Shown here: piece by piece, positions 5,190 to 63,166 of the stretch
Layout of the letters: each line of letters opens with the position of its first letter
Position numbering within the stretch: the stretch's first letter is position 1
Assembly: GCA_038142145.1 (NCBI GenBank)
Contig: JAYQJM010000005.1
Coordinates: 451,816-515,815, forward strand
Length of the DNA stretch: 64,000 nt
Direction of reading: 5' to 3'
Origin: Candidatus Actinomarina sp.
GTDB lineage: Bacteria; Actinomycetota; Acidimicrobiia; Actinomarinales; Actinomarinaceae
Notes under the pieces: model-generated
Told to the model about the DNA's origin: nothing
Seen by the model: only the letters and a program-made list of their open reading frames with translations
Database searches by the model: none
Translations under genes and position numbers: made by a program

Positions 5190-6259
5190 TATGGAATTAC
5201 TCCTTCTTCTTTTGCTTTATTTTTTAGGTTAATAAATTCCTCATAATTATTTGTAAAGGTCATTTTGCCATCTCTACTGGTAAGAAGATAGTATATGTAA
5301 TCATTTTCTGGTGTATTAATAATTGCAGTCATAGCTCTTTCTCCAAATCCTGAAATTGGTGTTGGCGGTAAACCTGTAAATTTATATATATTGTAAGGAC
5401 TGTCTACTTGTAAATCAATTAACAAAACTTGTGCTTTTCTTTTTTGTAAAGCATAAAGAATAGATGCATCAATTTGAAGCAACATATCAATTTCTAATCG
5501 GTTTTTAATAACTGATGATACTAAAGGTCTATCTTCATCAATTTTTGACTCAGCTTCTATAAGACTGGCTATTGTAAAGAATTCATTTGCATCATTTATC
5601 CATGTAGGTAAGTTGTTGGTAGAAATTATATTGTTATACCTAAGCTCTAGTTCATCTACAAGTGTTTGAAGTATCTCTTCCCCATTTGCATCTATGTTTA
5701 TCTGATATGTATTAGGAAATAGCAAACCTTCCCAATTTTGAAGATCAACATAATCGTTGTCAGAATGAAATTGTGAGACAACTTTACCTGATTTTAAAGA
5801 ATTTTCTAATTGAATTACTTCGTAACCAGTTTGAGCTGATATAGTTTCAAGAGTTTCAGAAATCCATAAACCTTCAGGAATAGTAATTGTATATGTTTTT
5901 AGAGGAGGACCTTTCAGCAATAATGCGGTTAGTTCACTAAATTCTAAATTATTTGGTAGTTCATAATTACCAGCCCTTAATTTGTCTGTTAAATTTTCAT
6001 TTCTTAAATAAAGTTCAAAAGCAAGTTGAGAACTTATCACACCTGTTGAATCTAAAATACTAGCTATTTGTGATGCAGATGAGCCTTGAGGTATGTTTAC
6101 AAATATAATTTCTTCAACAACACTATTTGAAGATTCTTGAATCACATTTTTTTCAACAGAATCAGCAATACTTGTGATTGAAAAGTACGTAATAAAAATA
6201 AAAATAAATGTAACAAGTAATTGAGCAACAGATCTGTATTTAATGTAATTATTTTTCAT
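5189..6259 (-). CDS. mltG: endolytic murein transglycosylase MltG (YceG-like)
   Basis: 356 aa. N-terminal TM anchor and a YceG domain, including DSPYNIYKFTGLPPTPISGFG. Confidence 0.85.
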   Translation of the reverse strand: MKNNYIKYRSVAQLLVTFIFIFITYFSITSIADSVEKNVIQESSNSVVEEIIFVNIPQGSSASQIASILDSTGVISSQLAFELYLRNENLTDKLRAGNYELPNNLEFSELTALLLKGPPLKTYTITIPEGLWISETLETISAQTGYEVIQLENSLKSGKVVSQFHSDNDYVDLQNWEGLLFPNTYQINIDANGEEILQTLVDELELRYNNIISTNNLPTWINDANEFFTIASLIEAESKIDEDRPLVSSVIKNRLEIDMLLQIDASILYALQKRKAQVLLIDLQVDSPYNIYKFTGLPPTPISGFGERAMTAIINTPENDYIYYLLTSRDGKMTFTNNYEEFINLKNKAKEEGVIP

Positions 6260-9149: not shown

Positions 9150-10839
9150 CTTCTATCAATTCAATATTGTACTCAAGTAAAGTATCGGTATCTATCTCTG
9201 ATGGTGCATCAGTTAGTGGATCTTGACCTGATTGTGTTTTTGGAAACGGTATAACGTCACGAATAGAGTTTTGATTTAAAACTTCAGCTACTAACCTATC
9301 GATACCTATTGCAAATCCAGCATGTTGTGGTGTTCCATAAGATAGAGCTTCAATAAACCAACCGAATCTATTTTGTATATCTTCTTCACTTAAACCCCAT
9401 TTTTGAAGTACCAAAGTTTGTATTTCTGGATCATTTATTCTTTGTGAACCTGATCCAAGCTCAACACCATTTAGTACTAGATCGTAATGTAAAGCAATTG
9501 CATTTTCAGGTTCTTTTTTAAATTCATCAGTATTCATTGGAGATGTGAAAGGATGGTGAGACGGTTGTAAAACTCCTTCTTCTACTTCAAAGAAAGGAAA
9601 ATCTTCAACCCAAAGAAAATTATAAATATTGTCTGTCTTCTTTGTACCAACAGTTCTTCTAATAATATCCATGTAGGGTGCGATATTTTCAAGAAGTCCT
9701 GTTTGAAATAATAAAGTACCTTCTTTATATGATTTTATTTTGCTTAATTCATCATCTTTAAGAAATTTAGCTAAAGGACCGGAAACTTCATTTTCGACTT
9801 TAAACCAACCCAATCCGCCAGCACCCATTTCCTTAATTGTTGAATCTAAATCGTCTATTTCTTTTCTAGTGAGTAACTTGTTTACAAACAATCCTTTTAC
9901 AACTCCATTATTTTTTATTGAATCAGCAATAAATTTGATGTCAGTACTCTTAAAATCTTCAGTTAAATCTTCAATTACTTCATTAATTCTTAAGTCTGGT
10001 TTATCTGTACCATATTTATCTAAAGCTTCTTTAAATGAACAAACTGGAAATGGTGTATTAAGTTTTACATCATAAGCTTCCGAAAAAATGTGTTTTACAA
10101 TTTTTTCTATATTATTTTTAACTATTGTTGGATTTGCATCGCTGAATTCTAAATCTAATTGAGTAAATTCAGGTTGTCTATCTTTTCGTGAATCTTCATC
10201 TCTGTAGCATTTAGCTATTTGGTAATAATTTGGAAACCCTGACATCATAAAAAGTTGCTTATACATTTGTGGTGATTGAGGTAAAGCATAAAAATTACCT
10301 GGGGATTTTCTTGATGGAACCAAAAAATCTTTTGCTCCTTCAGGAGTAGATTTTATTAACGTAGGAGTATCAATTTCCAATATGTCTAATTTGTTCATAA
10401 CGTTTCGTATGCTTTTAAAAGTTTTAGATCGAGTTACTATGTTGATCTTCATTTGTTCTCTTCTTAAATCTAAATAACGATATTTCAATCTAATATTTTC
10501 ATCTGTTTCTATAGAATCTTCTATTTGAAAAGGCAGGACTTTGCTTTTGTTTACTACAGTCAGATCGCTAACAAGTATTTCAAATTTTCCCAAAGGAATT
10601 TTGTTGTTTTCAAGCCCTTTATCTCTTTGTTGAAACACACCATTAACAGAGATGTAATACTCATTTTTTAATGATTCGTTTATACCTGAATCTTTATCAA
10701 AAACTAATTGAATAGTGCCGAAAAAATCTCTTAAATCAATAAAAGTAAGACCACCATGGTCACGTACATTATCAATCCAACCATAAAGATCTTCTATTGA
10801 TTCACCTGAATTCAAGTTTCTTAAATTGTCTATCTTCAT
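9142..10839 (-). CDS. aspS: aspartate--tRNA ligase
   Basis: 565 aa. N-terminal OB fold, class II core (FYALPQSPQMYKQL, QIAKCYRDEDSRKDRQPEFTQLD) and GFAIGIDRL. Confidence 0.97.
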   Translation of the reverse strand: MKIDNLRNLNSGESIEDLYGWIDNVRDHGGLTFIDLRDFFGTIQLVFDKDSGINESLKNEYYISVNGVFQQRDKGLENNKIPLGKFEILVSDLTVVNKSKVLPFQIEDSIETDENIRLKYRYLDLRREQMKINIVTRSKTFKSIRNVMNKLDILEIDTPTLIKSTPEGAKDFLVPSRKSPGNFYALPQSPQMYKQLFMMSGFPNYYQIAKCYRDEDSRKDRQPEFTQLDLEFSDANPTIVKNNIEKIVKHIFSEAYDVKLNTPFPVCSFKEALDKYGTDKPDLRINEVIEDLTEDFKSTDIKFIADSIKNNGVVKGLFVNKLLTRKEIDDLDSTIKEMGAGGLGWFKVENEVSGPLAKFLKDDELSKIKSYKEGTLLFQTGLLENIAPYMDIIRRTVGTKKTDNIYNFLWVEDFPFFEVEEGVLQPSHHPFTSPMNTDEFKKEPENAIALHYDLVLNGVELGSGSQRINDPEIQTLVLQKWGLSEEDIQNRFGWFIEALSYGTPQHAGFAIGIDRLVAEVLNQNSIRDVIPFPKTQSGQDPLTDAPSEIDTDTLLEYNIELIEDE

Positions 10840-47111: not shown

Positions 47112-48056
47112 TTATATTAAATTTATAGCCTGCTTTATAACTTCAACTGTTTCATCTCTCTTAGAAGGTTCAAGGTCAAGAAGTTGCAAATAAACAGCTC
47201 CTATACCAACTTCCTGCCACATAAATAACGTTGAGGCAACCTCTTCAGGTGTGCCGTATAAATAACTTCTTTCTTTCCAGTTTTTTGCTATTTCATCTTC
47301 AGGTTGAATTAGTGCTTTAGCAGCTGTTATAAGTGAATTATCAACACTTTCTTTTGTTAATCCCACTACAGGTGGACATGCAGTTGTAATCTCAAGTGAG
47401 CTAACATCCCTATCGTTTTCTTGAGCTACTGTTTTAAATAAATTTATACTGTTTTCCAAGGTTTCTTTTGGACCTGCATAAATATTAAATTCTTCAGAAT
47501 ACTTACCAGCTAATGTTGGAGTTTTTACTTTTCCTCCACCACCAATAATTAGTGGAATTTGTGACAACGTTGCTGGCTCCACAGGAAATTTTTCTAATTG
47601 ATAATACTCGCCTTTAAATCCTTGATTATCACCAGATAAAGCTTCTCTGATATAAATAAGAGACTCCTCTAGCATTTCAAATCGAGTTTTTAAATTTGGA
47701 AAAGGAATACCAAACAGTTCATGTTCGATTTCTAACCAACCTGTGCCAACACCTAATCTAAATCTATTTGGTGCCATTTCATTAATCGTTGATGCCATCT
47801 TTACAAGAACACTTGGATGTCTAAAGGTAATTGGAGAAACAAGAATAGAATATATCATTTTCTCTGTATCTCGTACTAAACCTGCGCTTGCAGTAAGTAA
47901 ATCTAATGCAGGTGCCGGATTGTCTTTATCATGCCTTTGTTTACCAACAATATAGTGATCAGGTAATCCTATTCTTTCAATATCATTTTGTTCGGCCCAA
48001 GTAGATAAATTAAGTAACGTATCGTAACTACCTCTAGCTTGAATATAAATTTTCAT
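47112..48056 (-). CDS. LLM-class (luciferase-like) oxidoreductase
   Basis: 314 aa TIM-barrel LLM pattern (GLPDHY..., RFRLGVGTGW, PLIIGGGG). Confidence 0.8.
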   Translation of the reverse strand: MKIYIQARGSYDTLLNLSTWAEQNDIERIGLPDHYIVGKQRHDKDNPAPALDLLTASAGLVRDTEKMIYSILVSPITFRHPSVLVKMASTINEMAPNRFRLGVGTGWLEIEHELFGIPFPNLKTRFEMLEESLIYIREALSGDNQGFKGEYYQLEKFPVEPATLSQIPLIIGGGGKVKTPTLAGKYSEEFNIYAGPKETLENSINLFKTVAQENDRDVSSLEITTACPPVVGLTKESVDNSLITAAKALIQPEDEIAKNWKERSYLYGTPEEVASTLFMWQEVGIGAVYLQLLDLEPSKRDETVEVIKQAINLI

Positions 48057-50014: not shown

Positions 50015-50092
50015 TAAATTAATTTTAAAAAAGAATATGGCTTTTGCAGGTCTTTTGTTTTTTTTGCAGGATAGATTTCTGAAAAACCCTTG

Positions 50093-50139
50093 TGGGCGCT
50101 ACAGGATTTGAACCTGTGACTTCTTCCTTGTAAGGGAAG
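50093..50139 (-). other. tRNA-Val(UAC) 3' fragment (anticodon arm to discriminator), att-site-like relic
   Basis: The minus strand reads CTTCC-CTTACAA-GGAAG AAGTC ACAGG-TTCAAAT-CCTGT AGCGCCC-A. Upstream there is no GGGCGCT acceptor strand and no convincing D-arm, so this is not a complete tRNA. Confidence 0.75.
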
Positions 50140-50183
50140 ACCTCATCATAAAGAGTTATAATAAACTAAAAGAAAGGAAATAA

Positions 50184-57813: not shown

Positions 57814-57997
57814 TCATATCAATTCTAAAAAGAGTATTGATAAATGTTTTGATTATTTATTTAATTAGTATTTAAAGAACATCTATTATGACTGAAACAG
57901 GCTCTATATCGCAGTGAGTGATAAATAAATCAGACTTCAGAAGTGATCAGTTCCAACTTTGTTCCAACTTTTTATAAGTAACTTATAGATAACCCAT

Positions 57998-59281
57998 TCA
58001 ACCTGAATTAATAGAATAGAAATCTACTAATTCATTTAAAGGTTTTGTTGGGAAAAAGCCAACAGGAGGAACTGTATTATCCATTATGAACTGATTAAAG
58101 TTTTTATAAAAATCATCTAAGCTAAGCCCTACATGCTTCTCAAAACTAGATTCAAATCCTAATTGATAAACATCTTCATGAAGGTTAATAAATAAAGTGT
58201 CAAATGAAGTTATATATGCAAGATAAAAATTTATCATTTGCCAACCATCAGAATTGCAAATTCCGGTTTCTCTATATTCTTCTAGTTTTGTAAATTCAGT
58301 GCATTCTCCTTGTTTATTTACAATATCGTTTCTTAAATAATTATATTTTTCTACAAGATTACAACCTGATCCTAAAATAAATCTACCTTTTTTGGTTCCA
58401 GGATCAGCTACAGGATTATTTTCGCAAGCTCCTACTCCGTCAAAATCTTTAACAAATGAAAAATCATTAAAATTATCTATAAAAAACAAAGTTGGGAATA
58501 CTTGTGCCTGCCCCTCAACATACCAAGCTGGCGCATTTACCGGATTGTTTAAGCCACAACAATCATTTTCCATTGCATTTGATCTACCAAATGTATGTGA
58601 TCTTTGAACATGGTGGTAATATTCATGTACAAAACTACCGATTACTTGTAGAAGAAATCCTTCCTCGCCATAGAAATTTTTATTAAATTCTTCATCAGGA
58701 TTTGAGTATGGATAAGGTTGATTACAGAATGAGAATTCATTAAATGTCCAATCTTTATTTCTTCCAAAACTTGATAGACAACTTCTTCTGTCGTAAACAA
58801 TATCTATTGCAGGAGTTTGTTTATTTCCGTTTTCGTCATAGAAATAACCAAATTGATCTAATGCATTAAGAAGTTCAGTGTTATCAGCTTCAATTTCGTA
58901 GATTACATGTACCCATCGATCGTATCCACCAACATAATCAATAAGCTTGTTCATTACCTCTATTTGATATTCTCTAAAATTTTCAGGAATACTATCAGAC
59001 CAAAGAAGACAGAATTCAGGATCTTTTTTAGGAATGTTCAAACCTAATTCTTTACTAACCTCATAAAAATTATTTGTTCCTGGAATTACTAATTCAGGTA
59101 TTGTACATTGAGCATCCTTTGTAAATAGAATTACGCTACCACTCATATTATTTTCCTGAACTGGTGTAGTAGTTGTGGTGTCTTGAACTGTAGTAGTTGT
59201 GGTGTCTTGGACTGAATTATTGTTATTTGAACCTGAACAAGATACAAAAATTAATAGAATTAGAAAATATAATTTTTTCAT
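57998..59281 (-). CDS. orphan Cys-rich lipoprotein with HExxH zinc-metallopeptidase motif
   Basis: 427 aa. Lipobox FVSCSGS, duplicated VQDTTTTT linker and SFVHEYYHHVQRSH (HExxH). About 10 Cys. Confidence 0.6.
   Translation of the reverse strand: MKKLYFLILLIFVSCSGSNNNNSVQDTTTTTVQDTTTTTPVQENNMSGSVILFTKDAQCTIPELVIPGTNNFYEVSKELGLNIPKKDPEFCLLWSDSIPENFREYQIEVMNKLIDYVGGYDRWVHVIYEIEADNTELLNALDQFGYFYDENGNKQTPAIDIVYDRRSCLSSFGRNKDWTFNEFSFCNQPYPYSNPDEEFNKNFYGEEGFLLQVIGSFVHEYYHHVQRSHTFGRSNAMENDCCGLNNPVNAPAWYVEGQAQVFPTLFFIDNFNDFSFVKDFDGVGACENNPVADPGTKKGRFILGSGCNLVEKYNYLRNDIVNKQGECTEFTKLEEYRETGICNSDGWQMINFYLAYITSFDTLFINLHEDVYQLGFESSFEKHVGLSLDDFYKNFNQFIMDNTVPPVGFFPTKPLNELVDFYSINSG
59166..59213. repeat. 2 x 24-nt tandem repeat (1 mismatch) inside the lipoprotein gene
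   Basis: gtagtagttgtggtgtcttgaact / gtagtagttgtggtgtcttggact. It encodes VQDTTTTT twice on the minus strand. Confidence 0.85.
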
Positions 59282-59405
59282 TTCTTGTAGATAATAACAT
59301 TTTGAAATGTAATTTACTCAAGATACTCATGATATTCGAATGTTTTGCTTGGAATTAATTTGGAATCTCTTTAAATTTTCTCAAAAACTAATTAAAATAT
59401 TGGGT

Positions 59406-59780
59406 ATGAAATTTCAAGTAGCAGTATTTACGCGCCATGTTTGTCAGTCAACGGCTGCTTGCGCCACAGCAGCGTCACGCGGAGATATCTCAACTTTCAA
59501 CTTGGAGCACTGGCAAGAAGCATTATCAACAGGTGCAAGTGTTGGTCTTCTTGCAGTGATCTTCACTTTCGGCAGTCTCAAAAAGATTCAGTCCAATCGA
59601 TGGGGAATTGCGGGAATTGCTTTCGTTGCAACTATAATTGCTGACTTCTTAATGGACCATGCAAGTTACGGAGGTCTTATCGGCCAACCCTTAGTAACTG
59701 GACTGAGTGCAGCCTTTTTATCCTTGCTGCTTAGCTCTACAACCTTGGGGAATTTCTTAGAAAAACTTGAAACTGCATAA
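59406..59780 (+). CDS. phage r1t-type holin-like membrane protein (GC-elevated gene)
   Basis: The track ORF starts at 59340. I prefer ATG 59406 (MKFQVAVFTRHVCQSTAACATAA...HWQEALSTGASVGLLAVIFTFGS...). The pattern resembles actinobacterial/phage r1t-family holins (..R..KT.aQ.a.a........W...l..a..a.lsvLts). I hand-counted 165 G+C in 360 nt (59401-59760). Confidence 0.4.
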   Translation: MKFQVAVFTRHVCQSTAACATAASRGDISTFNLEHWQEALSTGASVGLLAVIFTFGSLKKIQSNRWGIAGIAFVATIIADFLMDHASYGGLIGQPLVTGLSAAFLSLLLSSTTLGNFLEKLETA

Positions 59781-59859
59781 CTTTCTATAGAGAATGCCAA
59801 GCCATCGTCACAGTTTATAAAAGTTTGATTGTATAGGCAAAATATGCCAATATTTATTG

Positions 59860-59906
59860 TGGCCAGAGGCAGAATCGAACTGCCGACCCCTTGTTTTTCA
59901 GATAAG
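59860..59906 (-). other. tRNA-Phe(GAA) 3' fragment (anticodon arm to discriminator), att-site-like relic
   Basis: The minus strand reads CTTAT-CTGAAAA-ACAAG GGGTC GGCAG-TTCGATT-CTGCC TCTGGCC-A. There is one A-C mismatch in the anticodon stem. No GGCCAGA acceptor strand or D-arm lies upstream. Confidence 0.75.
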
Positions 59907-59926
59907 TGGTCACGTATAATATCTAC

Positions 59927-60757
59927 ATGAAAAGAATCTATACTTTTGGCCACGAACAAGTTCAAAGAAATATAACCGTTGGTGATATCATTGAAAACAA
60001 AAAAAATAATGTCAAAATGACTCAAGTAACAGCTGCAAATAAAGAAGAAGCAGAGATATTAGCTGAACAAGAGATTGACATGATAATTACAGGAAGTGAC
60101 TGGTATCAAGATGTAAGAAACGGTGCTCCCAATACATTTATAACAGCTGCTTTATTCGCAGGTAGATTTATAACAAACGAAGAGATATTACGAGGAGCAT
60201 TTGATGCTGTTATGGCTGGTGCTGATTCTGTATTAACGCCACGAAGTTATGAAGTTGTTGAAATGCTTGCGAATGAAGGGATGCAAGTTCAGGGGCACGT
60301 TGGAATGGTTCCCTCTATGTCAACAAAGTACGGCGGTATCAGAACAGTTGGTAAAACAGCAGAAGAAGCAGTGGAAATTTTGAAAGATTTAAAAAGATTG
60401 GAAAATGCAGGAGCATTTGGAGCTGAAGTAGAGTGTGTTGCTGATGATGCATTAGAGGAAATCAAAAAACATACTTCATTAGTACTTAATTCACTTGGAT
60501 CAGGATCAGGTGGAGACGTCATATTTTTATTTTTTGAAGATATTTGTGGCGAGACACAGGGAATTAAAAAACCACGACATGCAAAATCTTATGGTGATGG
60601 CAATAAAATTAAAGAAGATCTGAAGATTGAAAGATTGAAATCTGTTCAATCATTTAAAAAAGATGTTGATGGAGGCTCATTTCCTTCAGCTAAATACACA
60701 GTTCAAATGAATACTGGTGAAAAAGATAAGCTATTAGAAATGTTGGATAATTTTTAA
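59927..60757 (+). CDS. PanB (ketopantoate hydroxymethyltransferase)-like protein, divergent
   Basis: The track ORF starts at GTG 59906, inside the tRNA fragment. I prefer ATG 59927. The protein is collinear with PanB (KMTQVTAAN vs TAYD; QGHVGMVPS vs CGHLGLTPQ; VECV vs LECV; LGSGSGGDVIFLFFEDICG vs IGAG..DGQILV.HD). Several catalytic or metal positions differ. Confidence 0.6.
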   Translation: MKRIYTFGHEQVQRNITVGDIIENKKNNVKMTQVTAANKEEAEILAEQEIDMIITGSDWYQDVRNGAPNTFITAALFAGRFITNEEILRGAFDAVMAGADSVLTPRSYEVVEMLANEGMQVQGHVGMVPSMSTKYGGIRTVGKTAEEAVEILKDLKRLENAGAFGAEVECVADDALEEIKKHTSLVLNSLGSGSGGDVIFLFFEDICGETQGIKKPRHAKSYGDGNKIKEDLKIERLKSVQSFKKDVDGGSFPSAKYTVQMNTGEKDKLLEMLDNF

Positions 60758-63075: not shown

Positions 63076-63092
63076 TATAGAAGATTTTTTTG

Positions 63093-63166
63093 TGGGGAAT
63101 ACAAGACTTGAACTTGTGACCTCTTCCATGTCAAGGAAGCGCTCTGCCAGGCTGAGCTAATTCCCC
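63093..63166 (-). tRNA. tRNA-Val (anticodon GAC)
   Basis: Hand-folded 74-nt cloverleaf: GGGGAAT TA GCTC-AGCCTGGCA-GAGC G CTTCC-TTGACAT-GGAAG AGGTC ACAAG-TTCAAGT-CTTGT ATTCCCC A. All stems are Watson-Crick paired. CCA is not encoded. Confidence 0.93.

Follow-up and report, generated by a model that had tools for sequence, protein, structure and literature searches.

A 5'-truncated tRNA-Phe copy beside a PanB-like gene of Candidatus Actinomarina as a probable stand-alone attachment site

Why should the 3' part of a tRNA-Phe gene stand, without its front, next to a core gene in Candidatus Actinomarina, one of the most abundant and smallest bacteria that live freely in the sea? The locus lies within a stretch of 64,000 nucleotides (here called the window; C5:451816-515815) of the genome designated G000, a 1.10-Mb assembly of 32% GC in five contigs that is 88% complete. 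On the basis of the comparisons below, the fragment is most probably, with a probability of about 0.85, a stand-alone att site: a 5'-truncated copy of tRNA-Phe (positions 22-76) by the promoter of the PanB-like gene, which would serve as attB for tRNA-Phe elements and for integrase-less cassettes. The coordinates of all features are given in Table 1.

Table 1. Features of the orphan tRNA-Phe site, of the insert beside it and of related copies (positions in the window unless a contig is named)
Feature	Position	Strand	Remarks
tRNA-Phe(GAA) 3' fragment	59860..59906	-	anticodon stem to discriminator; 46/47 identical to own tRNA-Phe gene
Full tRNA-Phe homology, putative att core of the orphan ('type B') site	59853..59911	-	tRNA positions 22-76 plus 7 nt; compared with C5:882644-882730
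Core PanB-like gene (Pantoate_transf)	59927..60757	+	Pfam 4.3e-31; in 29/31 genus genomes
Whole insert, 1,986 bp	57874..59859	-	limits set by comparison with L098/L101, in which the site is empty
Element-derived P' arm, directly 3' of the core	59795..59859	-	register match to L068; within the L105/L107/L108 cassette match
Arm-type motif TAAACTGTGAC in P' arm	59807-59817	-	
146-aa membrane ORF ('holin-like' gene), cargo	59340..59780	+	about 46% GC by the count of the initial annotation
427-aa HExxH lipoprotein, second cargo gene	57998..59281	-	between 146-aa ORF and outer P arm
Direct repeat AAAGTTGGAAC, two copies	57950..57971	-	resembles the paired arm-type repeats of P' arms; putative role
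Outer part of P arm (...CTCACTGCGATATAGAGCCTGT)	57896..57937	-	inner P arm and attR core missing
Orphan tRNA-Val(TAC) fragment	50093-50139	-	parent gene C5:865776-865850
Val orphan with upstream GAGGT and start of P' arm	50072..50144	-	
Val paired repeats CCTGCAAAA, two copies	about 50040-50071	-	
80-nt 'tRNA-Phe' calls	L072 11748-11827; L073 862-941, 6937-7016; L075 6050-6129; L076 5-84, 6078-6157		

The minus strand of the fragment reads CTTATCTGAAAAACAAGGGGTCGGCAGTTCGATTCTGCCTCTGGCCA, letter for letter as the initial annotation, made from the sequence alone, had given it. The parent is the tRNA-Phe(GAA) gene at C5:882644-882717(+), the sole tRNA-Phe gene that ARAGORN found in the genome; the two lie 371 kb apart and on opposite strands. 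When the 47 nt of the gene were searched against the window with up to three mismatches, the single match was the fragment itself, with one mismatch, and 100 shuffles gave none, so that its resemblance to the 3' half of its own tRNA-Phe is clearly better than chance. An extent from the anticodon stem to the discriminator had been claimed. This describes the core correctly, but the homology is slightly longer. It begins at 59911, where the fragment has GACCACTTA and the gene GAGCACTTG (tRNA positions 22-30), and it ends at 59853, seven bases beyond the discriminator. Between 59853 and 59908 there is one mismatch to the gene, the identity to a tRNA 3' part by which an anticodon-loop att site is recognized.

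A complete cloverleaf with the acceptor 5' strand and the D-arm, as judged by ARAGORN and by the Rfam tRNA model RF00005, served as the measure of a functional tRNA. ARAGORN makes no call at 59860-59906, the Rfam model scores 18.8 bits there, below its gathering threshold of 29, and the 21 nt upstream of the fragment are unrelated to tRNA positions 1-21. The acceptor 5' strand and D-arm are thus lost, as had been proposed, and the fragment is not a functional tRNA gene. The further suggestion that the 47-mer might stem from a previous host finds no support: the sequence is native, and only the 146-aa cargo gene described below has high-GC actinobacterial relatives. Viral contigs scanned with the 42-nt core and with an integrase fragment from the related genome G003 gave no matches.

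All Phe copies were compared together with their flanks, and they fall into true genes, element-borne copies and orphans linked to the PanB-like gene. Downstream of the true gene, the tRNA-Phe 3' part is repeated directly in most genus genomes, as two to four copies at a spacing of 0.7-3 kb. Element-borne copies are preceded by a conserved P arm of ~75 nt (...AGAGCCTGT..CGAGCG...GAATAAGTTA.AAT...AGGTCAAATGGTT.GCCCtTAT), and they are identical to the tRNA from C32 onward, the base that opens the anticodon loop. The third kind, to which the copy in the window belongs, has the start of the PanB-like gene on its 5' side (CAT-GTAGATATTATACGTGA[C/G]CACTTG). Its left junction, ATTATACGTGA[C/G]CACTTG, is shared by no fewer than 14 of the 64 genus genomes and by the 12 contigs that a metagenome scan for it returned, and in six further genus genomes the anticodon-arm remnant alone stands next to the PanB-like gene. 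A chimeric join at a tRNA repeat could be imagined in a metagenome-derived genome of five contigs and 88% completeness, at a locus where the contigs of many relatives break; the independent assembly of an identical junction in all these genomes and contigs makes the chance of such an artefact negligible.

The best-kept copies of the orphan (G055, G020, G073 and G066) read GAGCACTTG and are therefore genuine tRNA sequence from position 22 onward, a sequence that the P arms lack. The initial annotation had taken the 5' strand of the anticodon stem for an element's imperfect inverted repeat; instead, it consists of residual genuine tRNA positions 22-30 joined to the promoter of a core gene. Most copies have one to three substitutions in these positions. 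The A at 59903 (tRNA position 30) is replaced by G in each of the 12 junctions from metagenomes and in every other genome for which the junction was read, and the A/C mismatch is therefore specific to G000. The P arm of the cassette family has CTTAT where G000 carries the A; this base may have been brought in during integration.

These junctions also bear on the idea that the fragment is the distal, attR-type scar of an insertion at the true tRNA-Phe gene, carried over 371 kb and flipped by a large chromosomal inversion. The opposite strands of gene and fragment would suit such a history, the gene order in the genus is fluid (bioRxiv 10.64898/2026.04.03.716425), and the orientation of the PanB-like gene relative to tRNA-Phe differs between G000 and G021. 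However, an attR should be preceded by DNA of the element and followed by that of the host, whereas here a core gene lies 5' and a P' arm with variable cargo lies 3'. Furthermore, attR copies start at position 32 behind a P arm and the fragment starts at position 22, and the same junction with the PanB-like gene recurs in at least 14 genomes. A displaced scar is hardly tenable on these grounds. No genes were shared between the window and the surroundings of tRNA-Phe in G003 and G021 when these were compared by DNA and by protein synteny.

Could the fragment instead owe its survival to a function for the PanB-like gene, whether as a promoter element upstream of it or as an RNA that is antisense or structured? 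The ATG of this gene at 59927 is 15 nt from the 5' end of the fragment, and this start and its -10 box are conserved. A perfect TATAAT at 59915-59920, 6 nt ahead of the conserved ATG, suggests that the transcript is leaderless. The GTG start of the ORF track does fall within the fragment, at 59906, as had been remarked, and is unlikely to be used. With the TATAAT placed between fragment and ATG, a -35 region would fall within the fragment, and the good conservation of the left junction is in line with such a role. Against it, most of the 64 genus genomes have no contiguous fragment at the 5' end of the PanB-like gene, and in G009 and G001 typA directly adjoins that gene. A promoter scan gave no -35/-10 pair that uses the fragment, and the fold of the fragment is not unusual (z = -1.5). 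Service to the PanB-like gene is accordingly a highly unlikely reason for the presence of the fragment. As the outgroup genus (G080) has no PanB-like gene, it does not polarise the origin of the orphan.

Some features of this neighbourhood may be mentioned in their own right. A second Pantoate_transf-like gene, ~26-32% identical, is found elsewhere in most of the genus genomes searched, and the PanB-like gene of the window may therefore not be an enzyme of the pantothenate pathway. In L046 (from G008) and L047 (from G017), at about 9500-10800, a luciferase-like gene homologous to 47112-48056 of the window adjoins the PanB-like gene, and the block homologous to 48-59.9 kb of the window, with typA, is located elsewhere. 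This arrangement makes the region upstream of the PanB-like gene a synteny breakpoint across the genus.

If the orphan is an att site, then insertions should begin and end at its core. Examination of related genomes for indel boundaries had been suggested at the outset, and such boundaries are found at the orphan both in relatives and in metagenomes. Two comparisons, L091 versus L100 and L098/L101 versus G000, set an empty allele against an occupied one, with the difference lying exactly at the core. L091 is an empty orphan site with a decayed T-arm (GGCAGTTTGATTATGCGTATTGTCAC). L100 shares its left flank, continues with a pristine core and a P' arm and then with a 1.6-kb cassette, at the right end of which a P arm is joined to the decayed 3' part of L091 and to the same distal flank. 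This pair thus indicates insertion at the orphan, with replacement of its 3' part by the element's copy, and it confines the crossover to a 24-nt stretch (TCTGAAAAACAAGGGGTCGGCAGTT) that is wider than the loop. The second pair is close to the window itself, the flanking proteins of L098/L101 being 97-99% identical to those of G000 at the amino acid level. In these empty variants the core is directly followed by AAATAGTTAATTAAA... and the w57376 gene. As this flank resumes at 57873 in G000, the limits of the insert given in Table 1 follow.

Occupancy of the site is not confined to these pairs. Cargo of other kinds is enclosed by the orphan and a P-arm-bearing copy in G012 and G068, within the same outer flanks and with an ndh-like gene beyond, and L092 and L099 hold two cassettes in tandem. 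Direct-repeat partners of the orphan are present in G012, G068, L092, L099 and L100. G043, the closest genome, has 39 nt in place of 2.4 kb of G000, and homology resumes 14 nt beyond the fragment. Among the junctions found, the insertions at the orphan are integrase-less cassettes only, none being an integrase-bearing element.

With these alleles at hand, it can be asked whether the fragment is simply what decay has left of a duplicated tRNA-Phe gene, inert and unrelated to site-specific recombination. Several relatives (e.g. G069, G061, G003, G046 and G060) retain decayed or truncated versions only, and the substitutions at positions 22-30 of most copies would be expected of decay. Nevertheless, the core is pristine in G000, G055 and G068, despite a PanB-like protein that in the latter two is only ~79-84% identical; it is followed by a P' arm; and the pairs of empty and occupied alleles break exactly at it. 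There is very little to be said for a mere relic, and an att site is by far the better reading.

The insert of G000 fits the att-site reading in its composition. Its P' arm agrees with the one that follows the Phe core of the metagenome contig L068 in the same register (25/26 in the best stretch). Over 609 nt, window positions 59320-59911 are 85.9% identical to a cassette located at the true tRNA-Phe gene in L105, L107 and L108. This cassette of ~740 bp is bounded by the true tRNA-Phe (attL) and a P-arm-bearing copy (attR), and its sole gene is an 88% homologue (amino acids) of the 146-aa ORF. The outer P arm of the cassette (L105 1378-1414) is 89% identical to 57896-57932 of the window. In G000, the two parts that match the L105-type cassette are separated by the gene for the HExxH lipoprotein. 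The latter is flexible in the genus: in G006:C24 a copy of 94% identity stands behind a Phe core, and the cassette at the orphan site of G012 encodes a HExxH lipoprotein of 576 aa. A repeat related to the one next to the outer P arm, AAAAGTTGGAAC, is found in the flank of G043. Thus, the P' arm (59795-59859) and a remnant of the outer P arm (57896-57937) are present. A full P arm is absent from the G000 genome, as judged by a regular expression and by an nhmmer profile built from 23 P arms (best E-value 1.9, on contig C2). No second core copy bounds the insert in G000, the only other copy being the true gene, inverted and 371 kb away, and the search downstream of that gene for cassette remnants gave nothing convincing.

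The reading of the 146-aa ORF as a holin is unsupported, since neither Pfam nor PHROGs gave a match. Besides the cassette homologue, a 75% homologue (amino acids) lies at 5001-5417 of L102, a MAG contig of Aquiluna sp. (Microbacteriaceae) of 52.6% GC that has no Phe core. This homologue in a contig of higher GC fits the raised GC of the ORF, and it suggests that the cargo gene may have moved between distant actinobacterial lineages.

Other parts of the G000 assembly are worth recording. Downstream of the true tRNA-Phe gene, L002 6981-11124 (C5:882980-887123) contains short ORFs of 80-138 aa, including a truncated NTP_transf_3 fragment. Contig C2:16757-18471 is 87% identical to L015 12668-14382, a cassette between tRNA-Phe and the first repeat in G003, the genes of which (120 and 460 aa) are transporter-like. 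The four small contigs of G000 may be unassembled pieces of a flexible island. ARAGORN found only 31 tRNA genes in C1-C5, with none for Ala, Ile or Ser, and for complete Actinomarina genomes 39-52 have been reported; the region of the rRNA operon and further tRNA clusters are probably missing from the assembly.

Which enzyme could act on this site? The tyrosine recombinases of G000 are two Xer-like (XerC/D-like) proteins, with one or two of the same kind in nearly every genus genome searched, and there is no serine recombinase. Among 65 genomes of the order, an element-type integrase was found only as a truncated 145-aa ORF in G003 and a 44-aa scrap in G002. The truncated gene of G003 lies just upstream of a Phe copy, an arrangement that is repeated in L068 and L070. 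In marine metagenomes, full-length relatives (380-391 aa) are common; they have the domains PF00589 and SAM_5, match phrog_1 and show a weak AP2-like signal at the N-terminus (25.9 bits, cut-off 33.3). The integrase stands beside Phe cores in G003, L068, L070 and L072-L076, and it is absent from G000. The initial annotation had argued for an integrase att site of the anticodon-loop type rather than random decay; this is borne out by element copies whose identity starts at the loop and by the presence of an integrase beside such copies elsewhere.

Integrase-bearing elements of 6.1 kb occur only in other genomes and in metagenomes, not in G000. In L072, an NCBI metagenome-assembled genome, tRNA-Asp and tRNA-Phe are followed by a 6.07-kb element and a copy of tRNA positions 31-76; the tRNA-Phe gene is attL and the copy attR. 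Its genes specify a primase/helicase-like protein of the AAA_25 family, two HTH proteins (one excisionase-like, HTH_17, and one Cro/CI-like), a product of 328 aa without family and, facing inward at the distal end, the integrase. In L072-L076 alike, the integrase is at the attR end, the AAA_25 protein towards the attL end and tRNA-Phe is the target. The TARA scaffolds L075 and L076 have the same att region (the core with a P or P' arm) at both ends, ~6.07 kb apart, and since this is one element length, circular or tandem forms are indicated.

P' arms contain paired direct repeats of 9-11 nt that differ between cassette families. In the Phe families these are AAAACTGTGAC, AAAACGGGGACAA and AAAGTTGGAAC (window 59807-59817 and 57950-57971; L072 about 5770-5800), and in the Val families CCTGCAAAA, ACACCCACA and CAGACCCACA (window about 50040-50071; L040; L043). 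They resemble arm-type sites at which integrases of different specificities would bind. When P arm and core are taken together, ARAGORN calls the att copies on the elements as 'tRNA-Phe' genes of 80 nt (Table 1). The P arm (…AGGTCAAGTGGTCTGCCTTTAT) mimics the 5' acceptor strand and a shortened D-arm, and attP therefore resembles a decayed complete tRNA gene.

A probable course of events can be drawn from the junction sequences. In the attP, the P arm and the P' arm with its paired repeats of 9-11 nt would enclose a core that equals tRNA positions 32-76. An integrase with an AP2-like N-terminal domain, supplied by the 6.1-kb circular elements, would pair this attP with the orphan, and the strands would be exchanged in the anticodon loop or close to it. 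The left junction of the inserted element would then be made up of host positions 22-31, the pristine core of the element and the P' arm, while the old 3' part of the site would be shifted to the right junction. With a fresh core at the left and the old 3' part at the right, every insertion would renew the orphan. In G000, 59853-59911 and the P' arm at 59795-59859 would represent the left junction of a composite cassette of 1,986 bp, from which the inner P arm and the right-hand core were presumably deleted later. Their loss, together with the lack of an integrase, would leave this cassette locked in place. It is from its relatives that the activity of the site in G000 may be presumed, G000 itself having no second core, full P arm or integrase.

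A companion site seems to exist for tRNA-Val(TAC). The orphan Val fragment is identical to its parent gene from the anticodon stem to 21 nt beyond the 3' end. Identical extents had been claimed for both fragments: their 5' limit is indeed common, but their 3' limits differ, since the identity runs 21 nt past the 3' end in Val and 7 nt in Phe. The 5' limits are sharp, at position 22 in the Phe orphan and position 23 in the Val orphan (in G021 and G006), and the P arms of the elements lack those bases. Synteny of the two orphans, at a distance of 8-13 kb, is seen in at least eight genomes. typA and other genes common to most relatives lie in between, and the two fragments are thus separate landing sites and not the ends of one island. 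None of the single inversions considered to link the two fragments to the true genes (Val at 865.8 kb, Phe at 882.6 kb) gives the observed order and orientation.

The common 5' limit could have two origins. Preferably, it would be the left edge of the core-binding site of the integrase, with renewal of only those copies that kept this edge; alternatively, it may go back to a recombination event in the conserved D-arm. It is tempting to go further and to imagine that Actinomarina has dedicated, self-renewing landing pads, consisting of the tRNA-Phe and tRNA-Val(TAC) halves around typA, which spare the single-copy essential tRNA. Such a system is rather unlikely at present. If it did exist, the mobile cassettes that use the true tRNA genes would also be captured at fixed positions 8-13 kb apart, and the limit at 22/23 would mark the core-binding edge of the integrase, which would explain the same extent of both fragments. 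Exchange between the orphans and the true tRNA island could then help to shuffle gene blocks in the genus.

Setting this speculation aside, the att-site reading of the Phe orphan has consequences of its own. The locus ties an integrase-bearing circular element and the arms of its attP to the cassettes of Actinomarina. It indicates that a tRNA fragment alone can suffice as a landing site and that insertion renews this site. Finally, a cargo gene with high-GC actinobacterial relatives is evidence of gene flow into a very streamlined genome.

How does this site compare with known systems? In the sublocation scheme attributed to Williams (2002), tRNA att sites reportedly include an anticodon-loop class, used for example by actinomycete integrative elements of the pSAM2 type. 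In this class, an imperfect 5' stem strand on the element side is a core-type half-site, and integration restores the 3' part of the gene from the element. The orphan differs in that it cannot be restored to a tRNA, the 5' third being absent. The 6.1-kb element has an integrase, a xis-like HTH_17 protein and an AAA_25 replication-like protein, but a search for an FtsK/SpoIIIE-like transfer gene gave no FtsK_SpoIIIE match, and membership in the conjugative pSAM2/SLP1 group is therefore unsupported. A second chromosomal site is also said to be used by Salmonella genomic island 1, an element with a preferred primary attB. Secondary att sites are generally weak, chance look-alikes. In contrast, the orphan is a true copy of the primary site, conserved in position across species and, as it seems, renewed by each insertion.

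The closest mechanistic analogue is provided by the tycheposons of Prochlorococcus (Hackl et al., bioRxiv 10.1101/2020.12.28.424599). Their layout, with the integrase at the attR end, an AAA_25 protein towards the attL end and a tRNA as target, is shared by L072-L076. Actinomarina belongs to a different phylum, and relatives of the tycheposons are reported in that preprint only in Alpha-, Gamma- and Deltaproteobacteria. Furthermore, tycheposon islands are described there as anchored by full-length tRNA genes, and partial tRNAs are taken for relics rather than primary landing sites.

In terms of organism and target, the nearest precedent is found in the same group. Gene cassettes between tRNA direct repeats have been described for flexible genomic island 1, or tRNA-direct repeat islands, of Ca. 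Actinomarinales (Lopez-Perez et al. 2020, PMC7771536). This pattern was published for the cell-envelope island of the order, and tRNA-Phe is among the tRNAs of the island. In these islands the hot spots are full tRNA genes within or beside the island, whereas the orphan is 5'-truncated and lies between typA and the PanB-like gene. No tRNA gene adjoins it; the nearest, tRNA-Val(GAC) at 63092-63166, is for a different tRNA. As the truncated fragment itself is the anchor, the locus falls outside the additive islands anchored by a full tRNA gene (Lopez-Perez 2020). An att site of tRNA-Val is on record for a phage fragment as well (PMC3861242). A literature search for integrase elements or stand-alone tRNA-fragment landing sites in Actinomarina found no published account. 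Since tRNA-repeat cassettes were already published for the order, the advance is incremental: it is the stand-alone site and its apparent renewal that are new. Actinomarina has been described as being without identifiable mobile elements (PMC7771536), and the integration mechanism at its tRNA-bounded hypervariable region was left to be identified (bioRxiv 10.64898/2026.04.03.716425); here, in contrast, an integrase-bearing 6.1-kb element with a matching attP is present in metagenomes.
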